Positions 7,806 to 63,976 of a DNA stretch of 64,000 nt are shown piece by piece. Numbering within the stretch: position 1 is the stretch's first letter; every line of letters starts with the position of its first letter. A program made the translations under genes and the position numbers. Source of the stretch: Deltaproteobacteria bacterium (lineage in GTDB: Bacteria; Desulfobacterota; Desulfobaccia; Desulfobaccales; 0-14-0-80-60-11); assembly GCA_030018495.1 (NCBI GenBank), contig JASEFS010000005.1, positions 11,153 to 75,152 on the forward strand, read 5' to 3'. The notes below the pieces were generated by a model, which did no database searches, had not been told where the DNA came from, and was given only the letters and a program-made list of their open reading frames with translations.

Positions 7806-8255
7806 ATGAACCAGGAATTGCAGGCCCTGATCGAGCAGGCCATCGCCCAGGAGGAGTTGTCCCACGCGTTTTACAAACGCATGGCCGAACTGGTCAGTCA
7901 CCAGGAAACCAGGGAGACCTTTGAGTATCTGGCCCATGAGGAGCTGGACCACAAGGCCTTTCTCCAGAAGTGTCTGACACCCGCGGGATGCCCCTTGGCG
8001 GGCAAGGCCACGGACGCGAAACTGGCGGAAATAATGGCGGCGCCTGCCATTTCGGAAGACCTCGGCCCCAAGGAAGCGTTGATAGTGGCTATGAAACGGG
8101 AGGAGGGCTCTCACAACTTCTACAAACACTTAGCCAGCTTGCAGCCGCCGGGGGAAGCCAGAGATTTCCTGGAAAAGATGGCCGAGGTGGAATTGAGCCA
8201 CAAAGAGAAAGTGGAATACCTCTACGATAACGCGGCCTTCCCTGAGGTGTGGTAG
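7806..8255 (+). CDS. Rubrerythrin/ferritin-like di-iron domain protein
   Basis: Four ExxH motifs are present (EELSHAF, EELDHKAF, EEGSHNF, VELSHKE). The start was moved to the ATG at 7806, which follows GAAGGGG; the ORF track begins at 7767. Confidence 0.7.
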   Translation: MNQELQALIEQAIAQEELSHAFYKRMAELVSHQETRETFEYLAHEELDHKAFLQKCLTPAGCPLAGKATDAKLAEIMAAPAISEDLGPKEALIVAMKREEGSHNFYKHLASLQPPGEARDFLEKMAEVELSHKEKVEYLYDNAAFPEVW

Positions 8256-30780: not shown

Positions 30781-31842
30781 CTAAGGCTGCTTGGGCACTT
30801 CCACGATAAAAACGGCTCCGGCTCCGGGTTTGCTCCAGGCCAGGAGGCGCCCGCCGGCTTTTTCCAGGAGGTGAATACTCACTTTCAACCCAAGATGCGA
30901 GCTTTCCGCCTCCCGCCGCGCCGGCGGGACTTGGAGAAGGCTTTTCAATGTTTCCAATTCGAGGCCCGGGCCGTTGTCTTTAATTTCCACCCGCACCCGA
31001 TCATCTGAGTCACTGACCTTTATCTGAACCAAGTCGCCGTACCTCAGGGCATTGCTCAAGATATTTTGTAATATGACCTCCATGGTGTAAGGCTCAAAAG
31101 GAAACACCAAACTGCCCCGGCATTTCTCAAAAGGCTGGCCGTCGATTTCCACCTTGATCTCTTTCTCCCGAAACCGCATGCCCAGAAGGTCCTCGATGCT
31201 GTGGATCAGCAAAGGGTATAAGTCCCTGGGGGTCCTGACCATGGTATCGCTGGTGAGGGCTTTCAGAAACAGGAGTTCCTGCCCCAGGACGTGGGTGAGG
31301 CGCTGGGAGGCCTCTTCCAGGGTTGCTGCATTCCGGGCCAACGGCTCATACTCCTTTCCGAAACGGTTGTATGTGGGGCAGTCCGCTTCGGCGCAACGGC
31401 GAAATTCTTCCTCCAGGACGGCCAATTTGCGCCGGATGCGGCCGGAGAACCCGTGTATGCCTATGGCCAGATTCTTGTAATGATGTCTTAGCGTGGCGAC
31501 CTGAAATTCAAATTCCTGGTGCAGGGTGTCCAGGCGCAGGCGATTTTGCCTCACCAGTTGGAAAATCCGGCCCACCAGAGCCCCGACAAGTCCTCCCAGC
31601 ACGACATAAGGTATAATCATGGGCCACATGTGCAGGTGAAAGCTATGGATGAGGGACCCCCAGACGTCCAGGGAAGCATTGCCATAAACATACTCATGAA
31701 GATTGTAAACCACCATGGCCAGGGGATGGCCCGTCAGCACGCCCAGACCCACTCCTGCCAAAAGACCTATCCAGGGGTAGGTCCAGGTTCTCTCCGTTTG
31801 GCTCGGCACTTCCAAGACGACGGGTTCCATGCGGTCAGGCAT
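30781..31842 (-). CDS. Membrane sensor histidine kinase (no adjacent response regulator)
   Basis: Two N-terminal TM helices are followed by the H-box LRHHYKNLAIGIHGFSG. The HATPase has LSNALRYG...IKDNGPGL...GLKVSIHLLEKAGG. Confidence 0.75.
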   Translation of the reverse strand: MPDRMEPVVLEVPSQTERTWTYPWIGLLAGVGLGVLTGHPLAMVVYNLHEYVYGNASLDVWGSLIHSFHLHMWPMIIPYVVLGGLVGALVGRIFQLVRQNRLRLDTLHQEFEFQVATLRHHYKNLAIGIHGFSGRIRRKLAVLEEEFRRCAEADCPTYNRFGKEYEPLARNAATLEEASQRLTHVLGQELLFLKALTSDTMVRTPRDLYPLLIHSIEDLLGMRFREKEIKVEIDGQPFEKCRGSLVFPFEPYTMEVILQNILSNALRYGDLVQIKVSDSDDRVRVEIKDNGPGLELETLKSLLQVPPARREAESSHLGLKVSIHLLEKAGGRLLAWSKPGAGAVFIVEVPKQP

Positions 31843-51443: not shown

Positions 51444-53645
<2,202 letters not shown>

Positions 53646-53756
53646 TTATTGGCTGATCTTATTATGTTTCAGGAAATAAGGCCGGGCCTGCGCTCTCCCG
53701 TCTCATAACTATTCCGGTCATACTCAGCCGTATCCTGAAAGCCGTAGTTAAGGTTT

Positions 53757-54224
53757 TTATTCATTGCTGATGGTTCTCGCCAAGTCAATTTCTGCCGTGC
53801 ACTCGGGACAGAGGCCGAAGAAATCCAGGCGATGACTGAGAATTCGAAAACCGGTCTCCTTGCCTGCGGCTTCGGTCAAATGCTCCAGGCTGCCCAGCTC
53901 CGGGTCCATGATTTTCTTGCACCTCAGACAGATCAAGTGGGGATGGGGGAAAGGCTTCCTGCCGTCGTAGCGGCTGACTCCTCCGGGGAAGGCCAATTCC
54001 AGGACCTCTCCTAATTCTTTTAAAAGAGCCATGGTCTTGTAAACGGTGGCAATGCTCATGGTGGGGAAATCCGCCTTCATGCGGTCATAAATTGCTTCAA
54101 TGCTCGGGTGTCCGTCGCCGGCAGCCAGGAGGCGCAGTATGGCCAGCCGTTGCGGGGTAAGGCGCAGCCCCTTGGCCTTAAGCCTGTCCACCATCTGAGT
54201 CAGGCGGTTCTGCGGCGTTGTCAT
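53757..54224 (-). CDS. perR: Fur-family peroxide-responsive repressor
   Basis: LRLTPQRLAILRLL is the winged helix. HPHLICLRCKKI...GLCPEC are the CxxC pairs. It lies directly upstream of katG. Confidence 0.8.
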   Translation of the reverse strand: MTTPQNRLTQMVDRLKAKGLRLTPQRLAILRLLAAGDGHPSIEAIYDRMKADFPTMSIATVYKTMALLKELGEVLELAFPGGVSRYDGRKPFPHPHLICLRCKKIMDPELGSLEHLTEAAGKETGFRILSHRLDFFGLCPECTAEIDLARTISNE

Positions 54225-54231
54225 AAAAATC

Positions 54232-54246
54232 TAATAATAATTATCA
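54232..54246. promoter_or_regulatory. PerR/Fur-type 7-1-7 inverted repeat box
   Basis: TAATAAT-A-ATTATCA differs from the PerR box TTATAAT-N-ATTATAA at one position per half-site. It ends 8 nt upstream of the perR ATG. Confidence 0.6.
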
Positions 54247-54381
54247 GAGGAAAAATGTTTTCCATAAATTAGACACGCTTTTTGCCCTGTCAAGGGCCCC
54301 ATGTTTTCATTGGGAATTCCAGTGCTCTGCATGGAGGGCGATAACCGGAGTATGCATAAAGCAAAATCAGCATGATGGAGC

Positions 54382-54428
54382 GGCGCAATTTATTGCGTTT
54401 TTAAGGGCGTGATGAATCACGCCCCTAC
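54382..54428. repeat. REP doublet in opposite orientation to the 1638 and 43858 copies
   Basis: GGCGCAATTTATTGCG (54382-54397) is followed by GGGCGTGATGAATCACGCCCCTAC (54405-54428). The latter is the reverse complement of GTAGGGGCGTGATTCATCACGCCC. Confidence 0.7.
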
Positions 54429-54533
54429 ATCAAAAATGCCTCTCTGACCCGGGTATGACCGCAATTGGCGGATTTCCGTAAGTTGCTAAAGCAGGAGGGC
54501 GTCCGTGTTTTCTAAAGGGGGTGAATAGGGGGT

Positions 54534-57125
54534 TCAGGCCGAGCGCAGGCAGGTCAGGCTGTAATCCTTGCGGCGGAAAGCCTGGAGGCAGCGGTCCATG
54601 ACAGCTTCAGAAGCCAGGGCCAGGTCCAGTTGGCGGCAGAAGGCCATCAGCAGGGCCACCATTTCCAGGGTTTGCTCGGATTGCAGGAGAGAAAATTTGA
54701 CCATGCGGCCCTGGACCAAATCTCCTATAACCCGGACTTTGAAGCCCAATTCGTCCAGAATCCGGCTCAGCAGACGCACCCGGCGCTCGCGCCGGTCGAT
54801 GCTGGCCGCGCCGCCCTTGAACTGGAAGCTGATGTAGTTGTCGTTTACCTCTTCGGAGAGGTAGGTGTCCACCAAACCGAAATGGTAGCCCAGGCGGGAG
54901 TTGAAATTGAGGTAGCTGTCCGTGATGATGGCGAAGCTTTTGCCCCCCAGCCCCCGGTCGGCCTTGTTCATATCATACATCGTGTTGGCGAAGACCGAAA
55001 TGAAGCCTTTCAGGTCCGGGGCCACCGAGCCGGCCCAACTGACTTCGGGGTGATGGAAGCCCCTGAGCACAGCCTTGAAGGGGCGGCTGACCACATCCTT
55101 TTCCTCTACTTCAGGTTGCCCTGATACCGCCAAGCCCCCGCCCAAGTCAAGGACAAAGAGGTTCAAGGGCAGGTCGGTTTTCAGGCGGCAGACGCCGCTG
55201 GCCGTGACCGCCTCCTCCACGTCCAGGGCAAACATCGCGTCCATGGCCTTTTCATGGCTGAACCGGGTGATGTCGTGCAGGGTGCGGCAGTTTTCCGCCT
55301 TGAATTCCGGACTCTCCGGGTCGATGAGATAAAGGGGCGCAATCTTTTTCAAAATCTCCTTGAGCTTCAAGAAAACCAGGTTGTCCCGCCAATGCGCGGG
55401 CCGCTCCGCGCGGCGCTCCAGCAGTTCCAGCACCAGACCGGGATAAATCCGGGCATTGTCGGCGTCCACGGTAACAAGCTGGCCCGGCTGCAGGATTTCG
55501 GTGGCGCCCCCGACGTCCACCAGAGTGGGCAGCCGGAATTCCCGGGTCAGGATGGTCATGTGGTCGGTGGGGCTTCCCACCTCGGTGATAACCGCGTTGA
55601 TGCGGTCCATGACCAACACCAGGCGGGCGGAAGGCTGGCGGGCCACCACCACCGCGCCTTCGGGGATGTCTTCCAGTTCCTTATCGCTTTTAAGGATGTG
55701 GACTACACCCGCGGCCACCCCTCCTACGGCTCGCACGCCGTGTTGGATGAGAGGCTGGCGCCGGGGACCAGGGGCGGCTTTGGCCGTTTCGGGCTTGCGC
55801 CCAGGCGGTGCGCTGAGGCGCAAAGGGCGTGATTGCAATATGACAATCCGGCCGCGCTCGTCCACGGCCCACTCGATGTCCTGGGGGCAGCCGAAATGCT
55901 TCTCCAGGAGCGCGGCGATATGGGCCAGAGATTTGACCTGGTCCGGGGTGAGACAGGGAGCTCCGGCTTCTTCCGGGGGGAGGGCTGATTCAGCACAGCC
56001 CCCTTCAGGGTCGCACCTGAGGGCCAGAGGTTTTTGGGCGATTTTTTGCTCCAGCAATTGGTGCGGTTCGCTCCGCGCGGCGCTGAAATGGTCCGGAGTG
56101 ATGGTCCCGTCCACGGCATATTTTCCCAATCCCCAAACCGCGTTGATGAGCACCCGGTCGCTTTCCGGGTCCTGGGGGTCTGTGGAAAACATCACGCCGC
56201 TGGCCGCGGCCGGCACCATGGCCAGGACCCCCACCGCCATAGGCAGGGACTGCACGGAAAAGTTGTAATGCTTCCAGTAAAAAATGGCCCGGGTGGTGAA
56301 TTTGCTGGCCACAATTTTCTTGTAATAGACGGGCAGATCCTGCACCGGTACATTGAGCAGGGTGGCGAACTGGCCGGCAAAGGAGAATTCGGTGTCCTCC
56401 CCCACCGCGCTGGAGCGCACCGCCAGGCGGTCGGTAGGCAGGGCCTCGGCCGCCAAGCGGAGAATCTGCTCCAGGTCGGGGGGCAGGGGGGCGGCCTCCA
56501 CCAGGGTCTGAATTTCCCGGCTGACGGCTTGCAGGGTTTTCAGGTCGTCAATGTCGGCCTGCTGGAGCCGGACCTCGATCTCCTCCGCCAAGCCGCTTTT
56601 ATTGATAAAAGCCTGGTACGCGGAGGCAGTAATGGCAAACCCGCGGGGCACCTCCAGACCCAGCTTGTTTTTGATTTCTCCCAGGTTGGCCATTTTGCTG
56701 CCCACGATTGCAGCTTTTTCTCTGGTTAGGGCCTGCAAGGGCAGGATGTAGGGGGCCTCGGGGATGGCGGGGACCGCGGCTATCTCCCGGCGGATATCTT
56801 CCCGGATGGCCTCCAGGATAGGGAAAAGCTCCTGGTAACGGTTCTGGGTGAGGCGGTTCAAGGCCGCCACTATTTTGGCAAGGCATGCTTCCAAATGGTC
56901 GACCTGCTGGTGCAGGTAGCCCATATCAAAGACAAATTCTTCCGAGGCCTTCTCCTCCATGTCCGCCATGGAGACCAGCGCCTGGTTGTTGTTCTCCAAC
57001 AGTTCCCGGAAGCTGGCGAATTTCTTCATCAGCCTGGTGTGAGGGTCCTCTTCCTCCTTCAGGAACCGCCGTAAGAATTTGAACATGGTCAGCCTTCGCC
57101 TGGCCCATTTTGAATAAAAGCGCAA
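54534..57125 (-). CDS. PEP/pyruvate-binding (PPDK_N ATP-grasp) plus PEP-utilising mobile-His domain protein with uncharacterised N- and C-terminal regions
   Basis: IVGSKMANLGEI...VPRGFAITASAY is the PpsA-like ATP-grasp. GAVVVARQPSARLV...INAVITEVGSPTDHMTILTREFRLP is the swivel His domain. The last roughly 300 aa are unrecognised. An alternative start is at 57086. Confidence 0.7.
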   Translation of the reverse strand: MRFYSKWARRRLTMFKFLRRFLKEEEDPHTRLMKKFASFRELLENNNQALVSMADMEEKASEEFVFDMGYLHQQVDHLEACLAKIVAALNRLTQNRYQELFPILEAIREDIRREIAAVPAIPEAPYILPLQALTREKAAIVGSKMANLGEIKNKLGLEVPRGFAITASAYQAFINKSGLAEEIEVRLQQADIDDLKTLQAVSREIQTLVEAAPLPPDLEQILRLAAEALPTDRLAVRSSAVGEDTEFSFAGQFATLLNVPVQDLPVYYKKIVASKFTTRAIFYWKHYNFSVQSLPMAVGVLAMVPAAASGVMFSTDPQDPESDRVLINAVWGLGKYAVDGTITPDHFSAARSEPHQLLEQKIAQKPLALRCDPEGGCAESALPPEEAGAPCLTPDQVKSLAHIAALLEKHFGCPQDIEWAVDERGRIVILQSRPLRLSAPPGRKPETAKAAPGPRRQPLIQHGVRAVGGVAAGVVHILKSDKELEDIPEGAVVVARQPSARLVLVMDRINAVITEVGSPTDHMTILTREFRLPTLVDVGGATEILQPGQLVTVDADNARIYPGLVLELLERRAERPAHWRDNLVFLKLKEILKKIAPLYLIDPESPEFKAENCRTLHDITRFSHEKAMDAMFALDVEEAVTASGVCRLKTDLPLNLFVLDLGGGLAVSGQPEVEEKDVVSRPFKAVLRGFHHPEVSWAGSVAPDLKGFISVFANTMYDMNKADRGLGGKSFAIITDSYLNFNSRLGYHFGLVDTYLSEEVNDNYISFQFKGGAASIDRRERRVRLLSRILDELGFKVRVIGDLVQGRMVKFSLLQSEQTLEMVALLMAFCRQLDLALASEAVMDRCLQAFRRKDYSLTCLRSA

Positions 57126-57215: not shown

Positions 57216-58067
57216 TTAAACTTTCACCACCAGGACCGGGCAGGGAGACAGGCCGATGACCCGCTCGGTGACGCTGCCCATGAGCAGCCGGGACAGGCCG
57301 GTGCGTCCGTGGGAGCCCATGACGATTAAGTTCACGCCTTGTTTTTGGGCCTCCGCCACAATAGTTCTGGCGGGGGGACCCTGGCTCGTGAAGCACTCGG
57401 TGGTGAGCCCCAGCGCCTCGGCTTGGGCCCGGATATCGGTCAGCACATTTTTCCGGCTCTTTTCAAGATCCGCCAACACTTCGCGGACGTTGCCGCCGAT
57501 GGGGGAGGGCAGTTCCAGGACCGACAGCACCTTGAGTTCAGCCCCGTAAGCCTGGGCCAGCTCCAGAGCCCGATTGCCTGCGGGTTGGCTGTTTTCGGAG
57601 CCGTCGGTGGCCAGCATGATTTTGTTTAGAGCCAGTGAGCCCTTGAACGGCACCACCAGCACGTCCCGCTTGGTGAAGCCGATGACCCGCCGGGCGACGC
57701 TGCCCACCAGAAGGCGTTCCAGCAAGCCGCGTCCCTTGGCGCCGATGACGATAAGGTCGCAATTTTCGGATTCCGCCACATTGACGATGCCGGCGTGCGG
57801 CTCGTCAAAAACACAAGCGGTTTTGAGAGGCACCCCGGCTTCATCGGCAATTTTCTGGGCTGCGGCCAGCGCCGTGTCGCATGGCTGGCGAATCAGGGTC
57901 TTAATATCATTCACCCCCACCGACCGGAGGTCGCCCTCATAGGGGGGAGCCACCGACACCGCCAGGAAGCTTCGAGCGTCGGCAAGCTTGAAAGCCTCCC
58001 GGAGGGCGTGGAGGCTCTCTTCGGAGCCGTCCACGGCCACCAGGATATTCTGATACCAAGCCATCAT
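57216..58067 (-). CDS. Tandem universal stress protein (2 x UspA domain)
   Basis: NILVAVDGSEES...LIVIGAKGRG and KIMLATDGSENS...LIVMGSHGRTG are the two domains. Confidence 0.85.
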   Translation of the reverse strand: MMAWYQNILVAVDGSEESLHALREAFKLADARSFLAVSVAPPYEGDLRSVGVNDIKTLIRQPCDTALAAAQKIADEAGVPLKTACVFDEPHAGIVNVAESENCDLIVIGAKGRGLLERLLVGSVARRVIGFTKRDVLVVPFKGSLALNKIMLATDGSENSQPAGNRALELAQAYGAELKVLSVLELPSPIGGNVREVLADLEKSRKNVLTDIRAQAEALGLTTECFTSQGPPARTIVAEAQKQGVNLIVMGSHGRTGLSRLLMGSVTERVIGLSPCPVLVVKV

Positions 58068-59134
58068 GCCTCCTCGACGGCCAATTCCATGGCTTTTTTG
58101 GTTTCAGCCCGCTTGGCCCGCCACATGGCGCCCAAGATGATCGCTGACCCGACTCCCAGGGCGATGCACATGCTGACAAAGCTGGCGGTCATAAGCAGGT
58201 CGATAGTGTTTTGGGGCATGGTTATCACGTTGAGATTAACCAAGTACTTGGGAATGGCCAGACCCCGGCTCACCGCCACGATGAGCATGATGGTGCCCAT
58301 GACGATTTTGATCATGTGTTCTTTGACATAGGTGGTGCCGATAGCCCCCAATTGCACCCCCAGCAGGGACCCGGCCAGGATGATCAGGGTCAGGCGGATG
58401 TCGATCATGCCGGTTACAGCCCACTTGACGGAGCCGCCGAAGCCCATGACAAAGGCGATGACCAGCTCGGTGGCCGAAGAGACCAAACCTGAGGCGCCGA
58501 TGACATAGATCATGCCGGGCACGCCGATAAAGCCGCCCACCGCGATGGTCGCGGCCAGCATGCCCGTAGCGAAGCCGATGGGAATGGTGAACCACAGGGA
58601 GATGGTGACGTTGGCGGTTTTGAAGTGCACCATGGGCGGCAGTTTTATTTGCTGCAGCCATAGCGCCAGTTTGGAAACCTGCTCGCCGCCGCCGGACCGG
58701 GCTATCTTCCAGGCGTCATAGAAGACATAGCCGCCGACCACCACCAGGATGACCACAAACGACACGCTGACATAGAGATTGGAGCCGGCCTGCCCCCAGC
58801 GGTTGAGGATATACTCCTGAATTTTGATGCCCACCTGCACGCCGACCCCCGCGGAAGCGGCCATCACCAAACCGAGCTTCAAGTCCACCTGGCCGTACTT
58901 GTAACGCTTGTAAGCGCCCACCAGGGCTTTGGGGAATTTGTGGCACATATTGCTGGCCACGGCCACGGCCCCGGGCACCCCCAGGCTCATCATGCCCGGG
59001 GTGAGCACAAACGCGCCGCCGGAGCCGATAAAGCCGCTCACCAGTCCGCCGATAAAACCGACGATGAATAAGAACATCACCGCGGTGGCATTCAAGTCGA
59101 TGAATTGCACTACCTCATGGGCTACATCAGTCAT
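58064..59134 (-). CDS. TauE/SafE (TSUP) family anion exporter
   Basis: It is polytopic. GGLVSGFIGSGGAFVLTPGMM and GFIGVPGMIYVIG match the family. It overlaps the usp gene by 4 nt. Confidence 0.75.
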   Translation of the reverse strand: MTDVAHEVVQFIDLNATAVMFLFIVGFIGGLVSGFIGSGGAFVLTPGMMSLGVPGAVAVASNMCHKFPKALVGAYKRYKYGQVDLKLGLVMAASAGVGVQVGIKIQEYILNRWGQAGSNLYVSVSFVVILVVVGGYVFYDAWKIARSGGGEQVSKLALWLQQIKLPPMVHFKTANVTISLWFTIPIGFATGMLAATIAVGGFIGVPGMIYVIGASGLVSSATELVIAFVMGFGGSVKWAVTGMIDIRLTLIILAGSLLGVQLGAIGTTYVKEHMIKIVMGTIMLIVAVSRGLAIPKYLVNLNVITMPQNTIDLLMTASFVSMCIALGVGSAIILGAMWRAKRAETKKAMELAVEEA

Positions 59135-59182: not shown

Positions 59183-60064
59183 CTAGACATTCAGGCGCAG
59201 ACGAGGCCGGGGCCGCTGCCGCTTGGCCGGGCGTTTGGCCGCCGCAGGTCTGGGCTGAACGGCCTTCTTGGGAGCCTGAATACCCAGGACTTCCCACACA
59301 TGGTGGGAAAAAGCTCCATGCACAAAGGAAAAAATAAACACGGTGGCTATGGGCAGCGCCGCGTACCAGCCGCCTAAGGTGAAGTATTTCATCACCGTGC
59401 CGGTATTCAGGAAGACCGCGGCGTAAAGCGCCGCGGTGGCCAGGCCCAAGCCGGCGGTTTTGGCGGCGAGGTTGTAATTCCTTTTCGGTTCATGTGCCAT
59501 AAGTCTCTCTCCTTGGTCTCCTTTGATGGTAAACACAGGGAGCGTCACTCCCCCGGCCATCTCCGCCTCGCTCATTTCCGAGGCGTTAATGACAAATTCA
59601 ATCCTGCGTTTCTCGTGGTTCAGAGTCTCCACGGCCCGGCCGAGGTCGCCGAACCGCACCAGATGCTCAAAGCCCAGGCCTTTTTGCCGCACCCGAGGCT
59701 CTATGAGCCGGGCCGCGGCCTTGGCCTGCTTCTTAAATTTTTCCTGCAAGTACCGGCGGTAGGGAGAATTGAACATCCCTCCCGGCGCGGCCTCCGGCCC
59801 CACCACCATGGTTATGAGGTCGTAGCCCAGCCGTTCCGCCAGGTTCACCGCATAATCCATCACTGCTTCGCTGAAGCCGGCTTCTTTGCCGACCACCAGG
59901 ATTTTGCGGTTTTCGCTTTTAACAGCAAGCCCTGCACCTGCTTGGCCTTCCGGGGACCGGCCCGTGCTGTGGTTAAGACCCGGCTCGGAAGGCGGGTCTG
60001 GACCTGCTCCTATTAGGGGCCCTTTTCCCCCTGCCTCAATCCGTCTTGTGCCATTTTTTCCCAT
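59183..60064 (-). CDS. Hypothetical USP-like domain protein with two C-terminal TM helices and Arg/Pro-rich tail
   Basis: KILVVGKEAGFSEAVMDYAVNLAERLG...ITMVV resembles a USP/adenine-nucleotide alpha-hydrolase fold. Two hydrophobic helices follow. The ATG at 60064 follows GGAG. Confidence 0.45.
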   Translation of the reverse strand: MGKNGTRRIEAGGKGPLIGAGPDPPSEPGLNHSTGRSPEGQAGAGLAVKSENRKILVVGKEAGFSEAVMDYAVNLAERLGYDLITMVVGPEAAPGGMFNSPYRRYLQEKFKKQAKAAARLIEPRVRQKGLGFEHLVRFGDLGRAVETLNHEKRRIEFVINASEMSEAEMAGGVTLPVFTIKGDQGERLMAHEPKRNYNLAAKTAGLGLATAALYAAVFLNTGTVMKYFTLGGWYAALPIATVFIFSFVHGAFSHHVWEVLGIQAPKKAVQPRPAAAKRPAKRQRPRPRLRLNV

Positions 60065-60523
60065 AATGAACTCCGGGATGAATCGCCTCAAAGGCGATGT
60101 TGCAAATTCATTAAGCTTTAATGTGGACTTGAAAAGACATAATACAAGGGGTGTGCCATTGCTGGCCAAAAGGATAACTATTTGAAATTTAATAAAAATT
60201 AAGTTAGATAACGGTATGCTGGCTGGTGCAGGCCTGTTGCTGAATGCAACAGTATTTCCCTAAAAAATTAATTTAATAATAAAACCAATAGTTTATATAA
60301 TGTTGCATAGGAAGTAACCCTCGTGTTGCAATCTGCAATATCGAAGAGCCTCTCCGCCAAGGTTGCTGGGTATGAAAAAAACTTATTGAAATCCTTTATA
60401 TTTTTTACTCAAGGCCGCCTTGCCCTGATGGAGAATTTCCCCTATAATTCTTTTATGATGGCGTGCTGAATTCATCCACCCTGGAGATAAAGCTTCAAGC
60501 TGAAGCTTAAGGCGCGCCCTATA

Positions 60524-62551
60524 ATGAAAGGCAACCCGATGTTTTTCCGCAAAACCGAAGAAGAACCGGCCAAGCTCAGCCCCGAACTGCAAGAGCTGCG
60601 CGCCGCCCTGGCCAAGGCGAATCTGCCCGAAGCAGTAGCCGCGGTGGCCAAAAAAGAGCTGGAACGCCTGGAAAAAACCGACCCCAGCGTGGCCGAATAC
60701 AGCATCGGTCTCAATTATCTCGAGTTCCTGCTGGGACTGCCCTGGAACCGCTCCACCGATGACAACCTGGACCTGGGCAATGCCGAAATAATCCTGGAGC
60801 GGCGTCACTATGGACTCAGGCCGGTCAAGGAGCGGGTTTTGGAATTCCTGGCCGGGCGCACCTTATGCAGCCTCCAGGCCTCCCGGGTCCTGGTGGTGGA
60901 TGACGAAGAGATCGCGCGCACCAATTTGGAATACATCCTGAGGAAAGACGGCTATCAGGTGGCGACTGCGGCCAGCGGCCTGGAGGCCCTGGACCGCCTC
61001 AAAGAGCAGGATTTCGATTTGGTCCTGACCGACCTGAAGATGGAAAAAATGGACGGCCTGCAGTTGTTGGAAAGCGTCAAGCAGACCGCGCCGGCCACGG
61101 ACATCATTATGATTACGGGCTATGCCACCGTGGCCACCGCGGTGGACGCCTTGCGCAAAGGTGCGGCCCATTACCTCTCCAAACCCATCAACCTGGATGA
61201 ACTGCGCAGCAGCGTACGTGAGATCATCGACAAAAAGCGCCATTTTCAGCTTTCCCAGGGTCCTGTCCTGTGCTTTGCCGGGCCGCCGGGCACCGGCAAG
61301 ACTTCCATCGGCCAGGCCGTGGCCGAAGCCCTGGGCCGCAAGTTCGTGCGCCTGTCATTGGCGGGGCTCAGGGACGAAGCCGAGCTGAGAGGCCATCGGC
61401 GCACCTATGTGGGGGCCATGCCCGGCCGCATCATAAACGAACTGCGGCGCCTGGAGGTCAACAACCCGGTGTTCATGCTGGACGAAATCGACAAGATCGG
61501 CCAGGACTTCCGGGGTGATCCGGCCTCCGTCCTGCTGGAAATCCTGGACCCGGAGCAAAACCGCCATTTTGTGGACCACTACCTGGACGTGCCCTTTGAC
61601 CTGTCCCGGGTGATGTTCATCGCCACCGCCAATATAGTGGAAACCCTGCCCGCCCCCTTGCTGGACCGGTTGGAAGTCATCCAGTTTTCGGGTTATACCG
61701 AGCACGAAAAAAAGGAAATCGCCAAAAAGTTCCTGCTTCCCAAGCAGCTTCGCACGCACGGCCTGGCCAACCTGGCGGTGGAGGTTGCCGACGACGCGGT
61801 CGTCAAGGTGATCCGGGATTACACTCGGGAGGCGGGTCTGCGCCAGCTGGAAAGAGAGCTGGCCACCATCTGCCGCAAGCTCGCCCGGCTGGCGCTCCAG
61901 AACAAAAGCGCGGCAGGGTCGCTGGCAGTGGACGAATTGATGGTTGAGAAGCTCCTTGGACCCCGCAAGTTCACTCATGAAGCCGCGGAAGGCGAAAACC
62001 GGGTAGGGGTGGCCACGGGGCTGGTCTGGACGGAATTCGGCGGGGAAATCATCTTTGTGGAAGCGACCCGCATGAAAGGTGTGCGCCAGTTGATTCTGAC
62101 CGGCTCTTTGGGGGACGTGCTCCGGGAATCGGCCCAGACCGCGCTGAGCTATGTGCGCAGCCACGCCAGGGAATTGGGGATCGATCCAGATTTTTTCAAG
62201 GAAAGCGATATTCACATACATATCCCTTCCGGAGCTATTCCCAAGGAAGGCCCCTCCGCCGGGGTGACCATAGCCATGGCCCTTATCTCCCTCCTGACCG
62301 GCCGCCCGGCCCGCCGCGCCGCGGCCTTGTCCGGGGAAATGACTCTGAACGGCCGGCTTCTGCCGGTCTCCGGCATCCGGGAAAAGCTCCTGGCCGCCCA
62401 ACGCGCCGGCGTCACCACGGTGATTTTGCCCCAGGGCAACGAAGTGGACGTCAGAAGTCTGGGGGATGAAGTAAAGGAAGGCCTGGAGATAATTATGGCT
62501 GAAGAGGTGGGGCAGATAGTGGATAAAGTTTTGCTGGCCGAGCCGCAATAA
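60524..62551 (+). CDS. lon: Lon-family ATP-dependent protease lacking the LON N-domain, with an inserted CheY-like receiver domain
   Basis: Residues 1-110 match only the distal helical part of the Lon N-region (HYGLRPVKERVLEFLA). Residues about 121-236 are a full receiver (VLVVDDEE...LVLTDLKM...IMITGY...YLSKP). Then come the AAA+ module (GPPGTGKTS, VFMLDEID) and the Lon_C domain with the catalytic KEGPSAGV Ser and SGIREKLLAA Lys. Confidence 0.85.
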   Translation: MKGNPMFFRKTEEEPAKLSPELQELRAALAKANLPEAVAAVAKKELERLEKTDPSVAEYSIGLNYLEFLLGLPWNRSTDDNLDLGNAEIILERRHYGLRPVKERVLEFLAGRTLCSLQASRVLVVDDEEIARTNLEYILRKDGYQVATAASGLEALDRLKEQDFDLVLTDLKMEKMDGLQLLESVKQTAPATDIIMITGYATVATAVDALRKGAAHYLSKPINLDELRSSVREIIDKKRHFQLSQGPVLCFAGPPGTGKTSIGQAVAEALGRKFVRLSLAGLRDEAELRGHRRTYVGAMPGRIINELRRLEVNNPVFMLDEIDKIGQDFRGDPASVLLEILDPEQNRHFVDHYLDVPFDLSRVMFIATANIVETLPAPLLDRLEVIQFSGYTEHEKKEIAKKFLLPKQLRTHGLANLAVEVADDAVVKVIRDYTREAGLRQLERELATICRKLARLALQNKSAAGSLAVDELMVEKLLGPRKFTHEAAEGENRVGVATGLVWTEFGGEIIFVEATRMKGVRQLILTGSLGDVLRESAQTALSYVRSHARELGIDPDFFKESDIHIHIPSGAIPKEGPSAGVTIAMALISLLTGRPARRAAALSGEMTLNGRLLPVSGIREKLLAAQRAGVTTVILPQGNEVDVRSLGDEVKEGLEIIMAEEVGQIVDKVLLAEPQ

Positions 62552-62869: not shown

Positions 62870-63400
62870 ATGAGGCGAAGCGTCCTGCTCCGTGATTGTG
62901 CTTGGGCGCTCTTGCTCATGGCGCCTGCCGTCCTTTTCGGGCTTTGGATCTTTTGGCCCCTGATAGGAGTGGCCCACCAAGGGGAACTGCCTTCTTACCT
63001 GTTCAACCTGCGCCAGGAAAAGCGCCGGTCGGAATATGCGGGCATTAAGATCATTAACCTGGACCAGGCCTATGCTCTTTTCAACCAGGGCCAAGCCCTG
63101 TTCGTGGATGTCCGCAAGCCTTATCAATACGAAGAAGAGCATATTCCGGGGGCGGTCAGCCTGCCATTGGATGACTGGAAGAAGAACAAAAACACCCCAT
63201 TACCTTACATTCCCAAGGATCGGCTCATTGTAACCTACTGCATTCGAGAAGCCTGCTACGCTCACCTCGAAATGGCGAAGATCCTTCAAGCACAAGGGTT
63301 TACTCAAGTTATGGCCTACTTGGGCGGATTCCGGGAATGGGAAAAAGCCGGCTATCCCAAGCAGGCCGGCCTTAGCCTTCAAATGGCCGGGAAAAAATAA
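62870..63400 (+). CDS. Membrane-anchored rhodanese-domain protein
   Basis: An N-terminal TM helix is followed by ALFVDVRKPYQYEEEHIPGAVSLP...IVTYCIREACYAH...GGFREWEKAGYP (the rhodanese fold with an active-site loop Cys). Confidence 0.75.
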   Translation: MRRSVLLRDCAWALLLMAPAVLFGLWIFWPLIGVAHQGELPSYLFNLRQEKRRSEYAGIKIINLDQAYALFNQGQALFVDVRKPYQYEEEHIPGAVSLPLDDWKKNKNTPLPYIPKDRLIVTYCIREACYAHLEMAKILQAQGFTQVMAYLGGFREWEKAGYPKQAGLSLQMAGKK

Positions 63401-63976
63401 ATGTCCAGTATCAGCATGCCATGCTGTCTCAGCGCCACCGAATTAAAAAAAAGGTGGCGGCATAGCTTTATTGTGCCGCTTTTTATGGCTATTGCAGGGT
63501 CGGGCTTGGGGCTGCTTTTTTTATATGCGGGGGGCAAGAAATACCTGCACCCCTTTGAGTTCGCGCAGTTTGTGCTGGATTACGAGCTTTTCCCTCAGAT
63601 TTGGGTGGGTTTCGGGGTTGCGATTTTACCCCTGGTGGAGTTCATTTCAGGTTCCCTGCTGGTGCTGGGATATATTTTGGGCGGGCTGGACCGCCTGGCC
63701 ACGAAACGGGGCTGGGCTTCCAGGGCTTACCTGGTGGACGGGCTGAAACGCCGGAGCTGTCTTCTCCTCATCCTGGGACAGTCAATAATGTTCACCAGCG
63801 TGCTCATCGTGACCCTGCTCAGGGGTTTGAAAATTGACTGCGGCTGCGGTCTCTTTTTTCAACGGGAAGTAGGGTTAGTGCCCATAATGGAGGACGCGCT
63901 GCTGGTTTTGTTGGCTGCGGGCCTTTATTGGTGGGAGTTTCCTATCGGCAAAAAAGAGACCTTGCCTCCTTCCTGA
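63401..63976 (+). CDS. MauE/DoxX-family membrane protein
   Basis: It has four hydrophobic helices and an LKIDCGCG motif. Its ATG directly abuts the rhodanese stop. Confidence 0.6.
   Translation: MSSISMPCCLSATELKKRWRHSFIVPLFMAIAGSGLGLLFLYAGGKKYLHPFEFAQFVLDYELFPQIWVGFGVAILPLVEFISGSLLVLGYILGGLDRLATKRGWASRAYLVDGLKRRSCLLLILGQSIMFTSVLIVTLLRGLKIDCGCGLFFQREVGLVPIMEDALLVLLAAGLYWWEFPIGKKETLPPS

Follow-up and report, generated by a model that had tools for sequence, protein, structure and literature searches.

The window analysed here, a 64,000-nucleotide stretch of contig JASEFS010000005.1 from a Deltaproteobacteria bacterium, carries at 60524–62551 on the plus strand a 675-codon open reading frame (ORF) for a Lon protease with a two-component receiver domain (REC) built into its chain, which we will call REC-Lon. 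Pfam assigns to it Response_reg (PF00072) at residues 122–231 (E = 1.3e-32, 112.7 bits against a cut-off of 30.2), AAA (PF00004) at residues 249–389, Lon_lid (PF22667) at residues 411–461 (E = 2.2e-18) and Lon_C (PF05362) at residues 469–670 (E = 4e-80), and finds no match to the LON substrate-binding domain PF02190 down to E = 0.1. The original prediction, made from the sequence alone, had described a Lon without its N-domain and with a complete receiver just before the Walker A strand, and had expected PF00072 between a helical region and PF00004 plus PF05362; this is the arrangement found, with the receiver motifs at the coordinates given there. The NCBIfam model for endopeptidase La (TIGR00763) recognises REC-Lon with 710.7 bits (cut-off 608) in two stretches split by the receiver, the score for NF008053 (562 bits) falls below its cut-off of 891, and the top NCBIfam models for the receiver belong to the NtrC family (AtoC, ZraR and NtrC). 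Since nearly all homologues open with M(x)FFRK, translation probably begins with the ATG at 60539 (M6), which would give a protein of 670 residues instead of the 675 called. The short N-terminal tail that begins there (residues 6–19, 60539–60580), with M(x)FFRK followed by acidic residues, is common to nearly all of the family and is disordered in the AlphaFold2 (AF2) model, with a predicted local distance difference test score (pLDDT) below 50; it could serve as a degron, for docking or for autoinhibition.

Outside the receiver, the protein is built as a LonA. The first retained region (residues 20–117, 60581–60874) contains the helical bundle and the helix α0 (HYGLRPVKERVLEFLAGRT), as judged from alignment and from the AF2 helices: residues 20–114 align to residues 8–102 of the Bacillus subtilis Lon construct 3m6a and to residues 249–344 of Thermus thermophilus Lon, while residues 245–674 align to the LonA AAA+-protease core. 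The similarity to LonA had been thought to begin only at HYGL (residue 95), but it starts at residue 20, about 75 residues earlier, and therefore the helical bundle in front of the AAA+ module is retained. What is missing are the first ~240 residues of LonA, that is, the PF02190 N-domain and the long helix, consistent with an alignment that opens at about residue 249 of T. thermophilus Lon. The PF02190 N-domain distinguishes LonA from LonB and LonC, and the helical bundle with α0 is LonA-specific and absent from LonB. Nor is the N-domain encoded further upstream, because the 354 nucleotides before the gene are AT-rich (GC content 0.35–0.39) and contain six in-frame stop codons, which rules out a hidden in-frame extension. 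Compared with the canonical LonA enzymes of Escherichia coli, B. subtilis, Meiothermus taiwanensis and T. thermophilus (3m6a, 4ypl, 7fd4, 7p6u, 6u5z), REC-Lon thus shares the helical bundle, the AAA+ domain, the lid and the S16 Ser-Lys protease and is 45–60% identical over the AAA+-protease core, but differs in the loss of the first ~240 residues, in the inserted receiver and in forming a clade of its own.

In normal LonA, α0 runs straight into the Walker A strand, whereas in REC-Lon a receiver of ~126–130 residues stands where LonA has a linker of 4–9 residues between α0 and AAA+ β1. The receiver spans residues 121–244 (60884–61255) and its long α5 (residues 224–244) continues into AAA+ β1; it is followed by the AAA+ α/β subdomain (61256–61699), the Lon lid (61754–61906) and the S16 protease domain (61928–62533). 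In the AF2 monomer (mean pLDDT 83.3, predicted template modelling score (pTM) 0.65) the N-terminal region forms helices at residues 20–31, 36–51, 57–71, 84–94 and 99–117 with pLDDT of ~87–92, and the receiver is modelled with the (βα)5 secondary structure. The last of these helices, α0 (99–117), is separated by three residues from receiver β1 (121–125), and at the other end α5 (224–244) is separated by another three residues from AAA+ β1 (248–252), just ahead of the P-loop. Among solved structures, the receivers nearest to it are found in NtrC-family activators of Aquifex, NtrC1 among them. A fold search with REC-Lon returned canonical Lon structures only, the best of them all LonA or LONP1, and a receiver inserted into Lon was seen in no solved structure, either by sequence search of solved structures or by fold search.

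Both the signalling and the enzymatic residues are in place, as had been proposed. The receiver has the acidic pair D126/D127, the predicted phospho-acceptor D170 (codon 61031–61033), T198, Y217 and K220-P221; the ATPase has Walker A at 253–261 (GPPGTGKTS, 61280–61306), the pore-loop Y295, Walker B D320/E321 and sensor-1 N370; and the protease dyad consists of S578 in GPSAG (codon 62255–62257) and K621 in IREK (codon 62384–62386), aligned to the catalytic motifs of B. subtilis and T. thermophilus Lon. An alignment of 56 family members shows no variation at D126, D127, D170, K220 and P221; T198 is found in 55 of them and Y217 in 54, the Walker A lysine K259 in all 56 and the Walker B glutamate E321 in 55. 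The pore-loop Y295 and sensor-1 N370 are likewise conserved in the family. Where sequences extend into the protease domain, 29 of 32 have S578 and 28 of 28 have K621. From these intact residues REC-Lon is predicted to be a catalytically competent ATPase-protease. N-terminally truncated LonA keeps its ATPase and peptidase activities but handles protein substrates poorly, and for this reason REC-Lon is probably a dedicated signalling protease with few substrates and not a general quality-control Lon.

The architecture belongs to a large family. Searched against 5.8 billion proteins, REC-Lon matched more than 120 clusters with identities of 75–100%, all of 666–712 residues (most 666–676) and all with PF00072, AAA, Lon_lid and Lon_C; the taxa named among them are Desulfobacca, Desulfobaccales, Thermodesulfobacteriota and metagenome-assembled genomes (MAGs) labelled 'Deltaproteobacteria'. 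The identical protein is found in GenBank (MDI6852743.1, annotated as "endopeptidase La", on a 139.7-kb MAG contig) and in an independent Logan assembly, on a longer contig (L001) that we use below. A profile of the N-terminal 274 residues matched 1177 clusters at E <= 1e-40, mostly fragmentary proteins of fewer than 500 residues that serve for taxon names and not for full-length comparison; their sources include Syntrophobacteraceae, Desulfobulbaceae, Desulfatirhabdiaceae, Desulfuromusa, Desulfovibrio, Nitrospirota and Thermodesulfovibrionales. A search of a representative library gave few 50%-identity clusters spanning the bundle, the receiver and Walker A, a number that does not measure the spread of the family since the conserved Lon core collapses it. 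Scanning a genome collection, we found at least seven true full-length family loci among the matches listed, beside many canonical Lons and unrelated regulators: from Syntrophobacteraceae, Desulfonema, Syntrophobacter, Desulfobulbales, a delta-proteobacterial MAG, Desulfobacter vibrioformis DSM 8776 and a Nitrospirota MAG. Pfam gives the identical architecture in D. vibrioformis DSM 8776, which is a cultured isolate, and in the Nitrospirota MAG. In a neighbour-joining tree of 61 Lon AAA+-protease cores the eight REC-Lons form one clade, so the insertion of the receiver arose once. Within the 64-kb window there is no second Lon and no other receiver, and tblastn of REC-Lon against it matches only itself.

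Two kinds of related sequences stand apart from these full-length members. A separate group of paralogues of 375–382 residues (P0134, P0143, P0156, P0233, P0365 and L082 810–1943) is made up of the Lon helical bundle plus receiver and large AAA+ subdomain and nothing more; Walker A, Walker B or both have degenerated, and the tyrosine of the pore loop, the lid and the protease are lacking. In L082 the gene of this type adjoins one for a Trypsin_2 protease, and neither a kinase nor an activator gene lies close by. These proteins look like receiver-bearing pseudo-ATPases derived from REC-Lon. The other is P0338 (WP_272701674.1, Desulfovibrio sp. Fe33), a RefSeq "response regulator" of 468 residues that reads as a REC-Lon with a low-complexity, out-of-frame-looking tail past the lid, and whose gene is probably frameshifted or truncated.

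The probable partners of REC-Lon become visible once the locus is followed past the end of the window. The original prediction had no cognate kinase adjacent to lon, which was an artefact of the window edge: on L001 a DUF4139 gene is followed by a sigma-54 response regulator of 450 residues (Response_reg-Sigma54_activat-HTH_8; L001 8737–10089, minus strand) and then by a HAMP-HisKA-HATPase_c histidine kinase of 489 residues (L001 10086–11555, 4.8 kb past the lon stop). The kinase-activator pair lies on the strand opposite to lon, 3.4–6.3 kb past its stop codon. By tblastn, an orthologous kinase (35–61% identity, full length) and activator (55–68%) are found within ~5 kb of lon in all seven other loci, and in two of these both follow lon directly on the same strand. 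In the activator of this genome the sigma-54 contact motif, canonically GAFTGA, reads EAFTGA, and the counterpart DVU3305 was reported with GAFSGA (PMC4641369). The orphan kinase named earlier as a possible partner, at 30781–31842 on the minus strand, is rejected: it has HATPase_c only, without HisKA at E <= 0.001, is ~30 kb off, has no link to the lon locus and is without a counterpart near lon in the other genomes. It adjoins a gene for a pentapeptide-repeat protein.

On the other side, an operon on the minus strand diverges from lon. Its first gene (59183–60064) encodes a universal stress protein (Usp)-like domain with a C-terminal membrane region (293 residues as called on L001); the Usp match is weak, and tblastn finds the gene in all seven other loci, with 25–42% identity and divergent from lon. 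The second gene (58064–59134) encodes an anion exporter of the TauE/SafE family (PF01925, E = 2.2e-35) and is divergent from lon in six of the seven other loci (63–76% identity). The third (57216–58067) encodes a tandem universal stress protein (PF00582, E = 9.3e-64, in two stretches), also present in L003 and L005.

The intergenic region between lon and this operon contains two palindromes that we predict to be binding sites for the activator, TGTTGCTGAATGCAACA at 60235–60251, an exact match to TGTTGC-N5-GCAACA, and TGTTGCAATCTGCAATA at 60324–60340, with one mismatch. They are the only matches with at most one mismatch in the 64 kb and sit at −289 and −200 relative to the lon start. Allowing three mismatches, such palindromes occur in 8 of 8 loci, two or more of them in 7 of 8, at a density of 5.0 per kb in the intergenic regions against 0.36 per kb elsewhere. 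A sigma-54-type promoter candidate, TGGCACACCCCTTGT (60144–60158, minus strand), faces the divergent Usp/TauE operon; alone it is not significant, but a minus-strand sigma-54-like site (TGGCAC-N5-TTG in most loci) lies upstream of the Usp gene in all eight. No sigma-54 promoter was found before lon on the plus strand, the sole near-consensus intergenic site being the one that faces the opposite operon, and the candidate promoter for lon is sigma-70-like, TTGCCC-17-TATAAT at 60420–60448 on the plus strand, from a consensus scan only. In several genomes a palindrome lies only 8–61 bp before the lon start (L002 ~7975–7991, L004 7963–7979, L006 ~7940–7975, and −8 in Desulfovibrio vulgaris). Because of this short distance we propose that activator binding may overlap the lon promoter in those genomes and perhaps represses it there.

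These features identify the locus as a system of the DVU3303-3305 type. In D. vulgaris Hildenborough, a species also called Nitratidesulfovibrio vulgaris, Rajeev et al., 2011 (PMC3333781) described a "three-component system" of the kinase DVU3304, the sigma-54 regulator DVU3305 and DVU3303, a "Lon-protease response regulator", for which two-component control was already proposed. DVU3305 binds upstream of DVU3303-3305 and of the divergent DVU3302-3298, coding for membrane and UspA-type proteins (PMC3333781), and both operons were again listed as its regulon by Kazakov et al., 2015 (PMC4641369). The gel-shift-validated DVU3305 site before DVU3303 is GTGTTGCGATATGCAACAC, with sites GTTGCGATATGCAAC at −89 and GCTGCATAATGCAAC at −8 (PMC3333781), and the window palindromes match GTTGCGATATGCAAC, the validated site type (GTTGC-N5-GCAAC). 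Orthologues, usually linked to the Lon-type regulator, were noted in other Desulfovibrio, Thermodesulfovibrio, Thioalkalivibrio and Dechloromonas (PMC3333781). The two systems thus share a receiver and a Lon protease in one protein, a histidine kinase and a sigma-54 regulator nearby, a divergent operon for membrane and UspA-type proteins with an anion transporter, and the palindrome GTTGC-N5-GCAAC in the shared intergenic region; they differ in that the D. vulgaris genes form a single operon lon-kinase-activator, whereas here the pair is on the opposite strand, 3.4 kb downstream. Genetic data also exist: any two of the DVU3303-3305 genes have a cofitness above 0.9, and under chlorate stress the three genes are harmful, an effect that was linked to DVU3299, the anion transporter among the targets (Trotter et al., 2023; PMC10102598). 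As D. vulgaris also carries an ordinary Lon, DVU1337, the receiver-bearing Lon is an extra paralogue there.

The locus is therefore a fresh member of an already known family that is biochemically unexplored, and not a new kind of system. That a protease might be under two-component control was a reasonable idea in the original prediction, but it had been put forward for DVU3303 before (PMC3333781), and the architecture, thought then to be uncharacterised, has been described since 2011. In the literature searched there is no biochemical or structural characterisation of a receiver-containing Lon, only genomic and genetic mentions of the D. vulgaris protein.

What could the receiver do inside a Lon? 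It is a paralogue of the receiver in the partner activator. In this genome the two are 55% identical (78% positives); over the loci, Lon and activator receivers have a mean identity of 52.5% within a locus (range 48–55%) and 48.2% between loci, compared with ~57% among orthologues of either kind and ~31% between the Lon receiver and unrelated receivers of the same loci. The α1 helix is nearly identical in both (DDExIARxNLExILRKxGY), and it is through α1 that receivers dock on their kinase. Since the receivers are paralogous and their α1 helices almost the same, the simplest reading is that one kinase phosphorylates both. We consider it fairly probable, then, that REC-Lon is a LonA paralogue with a specialised role, as the second response regulator in a branched two-component system, with phosphorylation gating the protease.

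In this mechanism a single membrane histidine kinase (HAMP-HisKA-HATPase) would phosphorylate two paralogous receivers. One is on the sigma-54 enhancer-binding protein, which would bind GTTGC-N5-GCAAC at 60235–60340 and drive the Usp/TauE operon from 60144–60158. The other sits inside REC-Lon between α0 and the Walker A strand, and its phosphorylation on Asp170 would alter the α4-β5-α5 face, the region that shifts when a receiver is phosphorylated. The change would then pass via α5 to nucleotide binding or to ring assembly and switch the ATPase-protease on or off. We propose transmission to the P-loop region because α5 enters AAA+ β1 after only three residues, just before the P-loop, and control of ring assembly or nucleotide binding because the nearest solved receivers belong to NtrC1-type activators, which assemble according to the state of the receiver. 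In those activators the phosphorylation state of the receiver controls assembly of the AAA+ ring. NtrC1/DctD-type proteins (1ny5, 4l4u, 3dzd) have the same receiver subtype directly preceding an AAA+ domain; however, the AAA+ module of REC-Lon is a Lon unfoldase and not a sigma-54 remodeller, there is no DNA-binding domain, and the receiver is internal and held at both ends, whereas theirs is N-terminal on a coiled-coil linker. The obvious candidate substrates would be the activator itself and the Usp and TauE proteins.

Several observations weigh against this gating mechanism or limit it. Here lon is not in an operon with the kinase, and two unrelated genes (rhodanese and MauE) and a DUF4139 gene intervene. 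The evidence for orthology to DVU3303 comes from synteny, from the binding motif and from its description in print. Phosphorylation of Asp170, degradation of a substrate and the direction of the phosphorylation effect are not demonstrated in the literature searched; we infer phosphotransfer from the neighbouring kinase, and likewise the direction of the switch, the allosteric route and the substrates. The D. vulgaris cofitness could reflect polarity, because DVU3303 heads its operon and insertions in it may be polar. Finally, the AF2 model is of a monomer only, with a pTM of 0.65, and so does not show where the receiver sits with respect to ring, pore or adjacent subunit.

Gating could also be combined with substrate capture. 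The receiver may have been copied from the partner activator and grafted between α0 and the P-loop strand, so that it both gates the ring as in NtrC1 and, by pairing of receivers, captures the activator or the kinase as a substrate; we regard this fuller scenario as possible but rather unlikely.

Capture as the main task of the receiver is a distinct alternative, in which the receiver would be chiefly a recruitment module that replaces the N-domain: through its α4-β5-α5 face it would pair with the receiver of the activator, or else dock on the kinase, so that the protease ends or resets its own signalling pathway. The absence of the substrate-binding N-domain would fit such a role, as would the 48–55% identity of the two receivers in each locus, which extends to nearly the same α4-β5 segments (TGYATVxxAVxAxxKGAxHYLxKP). 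The closest solved receivers, those of the Aquifex NtrC family including NtrC1, dimerise through the α4-β5-α5 face, and the closeness of an activator site to the lon start, 8–61 bp ahead of it in several loci and also in D. vulgaris, hints at tight cross-regulation. The likeness of the receivers is, however, equally explained by a shared kinase. Moreover, a lon mutant should then oppose the kinase and activator mutants, yet in D. vulgaris the three behave alike, although polarity may hide the difference (PMC10102598). On balance we find recruitment as the main role unlikely.

A phosphate sink is less likely, indeed improbable in our view. Here the Lon activity would be constitutive and the receiver only a decoy that tunes the flow of phosphate to the activator, as might be expected of a second receiver with a near-identical α1 helix beside a single kinase; phosphate-sink receivers are established in branched two-component systems. 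A sink, however, would not call for insertion in the middle of an AAA+ fold by way of two three-residue connectors, and it needs neither T198 and Y217 nor intact ATPase and protease sites, all of which are preserved across the family. The truncated paralogues with a dead ATPase form a separate group, so such loss is tolerated elsewhere but has not occurred in REC-Lon.

An origin of the fusion in misassembly, or in the decay of Lon to a pseudogene, as the older TIGR annotation of the D. vulgaris gene ("ATP-dependent protease La, truncation") might suggest, is refuted by the same architecture and length (666–676 residues) in more than 120 independent clusters, the identical protein in two assemblies, the occurrence in the genome of a cultured isolate, the conserved catalytic residues and the monophyly of the subfamily.

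The gating mechanism, if correct, would have implications beyond this locus. Bacterial regulated proteolysis is usually tied to two-component signalling by separate adaptors, such as RssB and CpdR. Like REC-Lon, these use a receiver (with generic similarity in NCBIfam) to couple phosphorylation to ATP-dependent proteolysis, but they are adaptors of ClpXP acting in trans, while in REC-Lon the receiver is covalently part of the protease's own ATPase, built into the motor itself close to the nucleotide-binding loop. Gating by phosphorylation would make REC-Lon a compact case of direct kinase control of an AAA+ protease and a natural test-bed for the control of ring ATPases by insertions near the P-loop. 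Were gating and receiver pairing both to operate, one kinase would turn on the regulon and at the same time arm a protease that later erases the signal, that is, a proteolytic reset timed by the kinase, complete in itself and independent of any adaptor protein. Members of the family occur widely, above all in anaerobic sulfate reducers, syntrophs and Nitrospirota, and are surrounded by the same module of stress genes, for Usp proteins and a TauE anion exporter, the D. vulgaris version of which is linked genetically to chlorate tolerance. The gating hypothesis is directly testable, since its components can be purified, a binding site is defined and a host amenable to genetics exists.

Some further genes flank the system in this genome. 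Directly 3′ of lon, at 62870–63976 on the plus strand, are genes for a rhodanese-domain protein and a MauE-family membrane protein, for which tblastn gives no match in the seven other loci. Beyond the tandem Usp gene, on the same strand and after a gap of 90 nucleotides, lies an 863-residue PPDK_N/PEP-utilizer gene (54534–57125, minus strand), which tblastn did not find beside REC-Lon in the seven other loci. Further upstream of the Usp/TauE genes, in the minus-strand stretch 51444–57125, the window also contains a gene for a Fur-family regulator (53757–54224) and a catalase-peroxidase-like gene (51444–53633).

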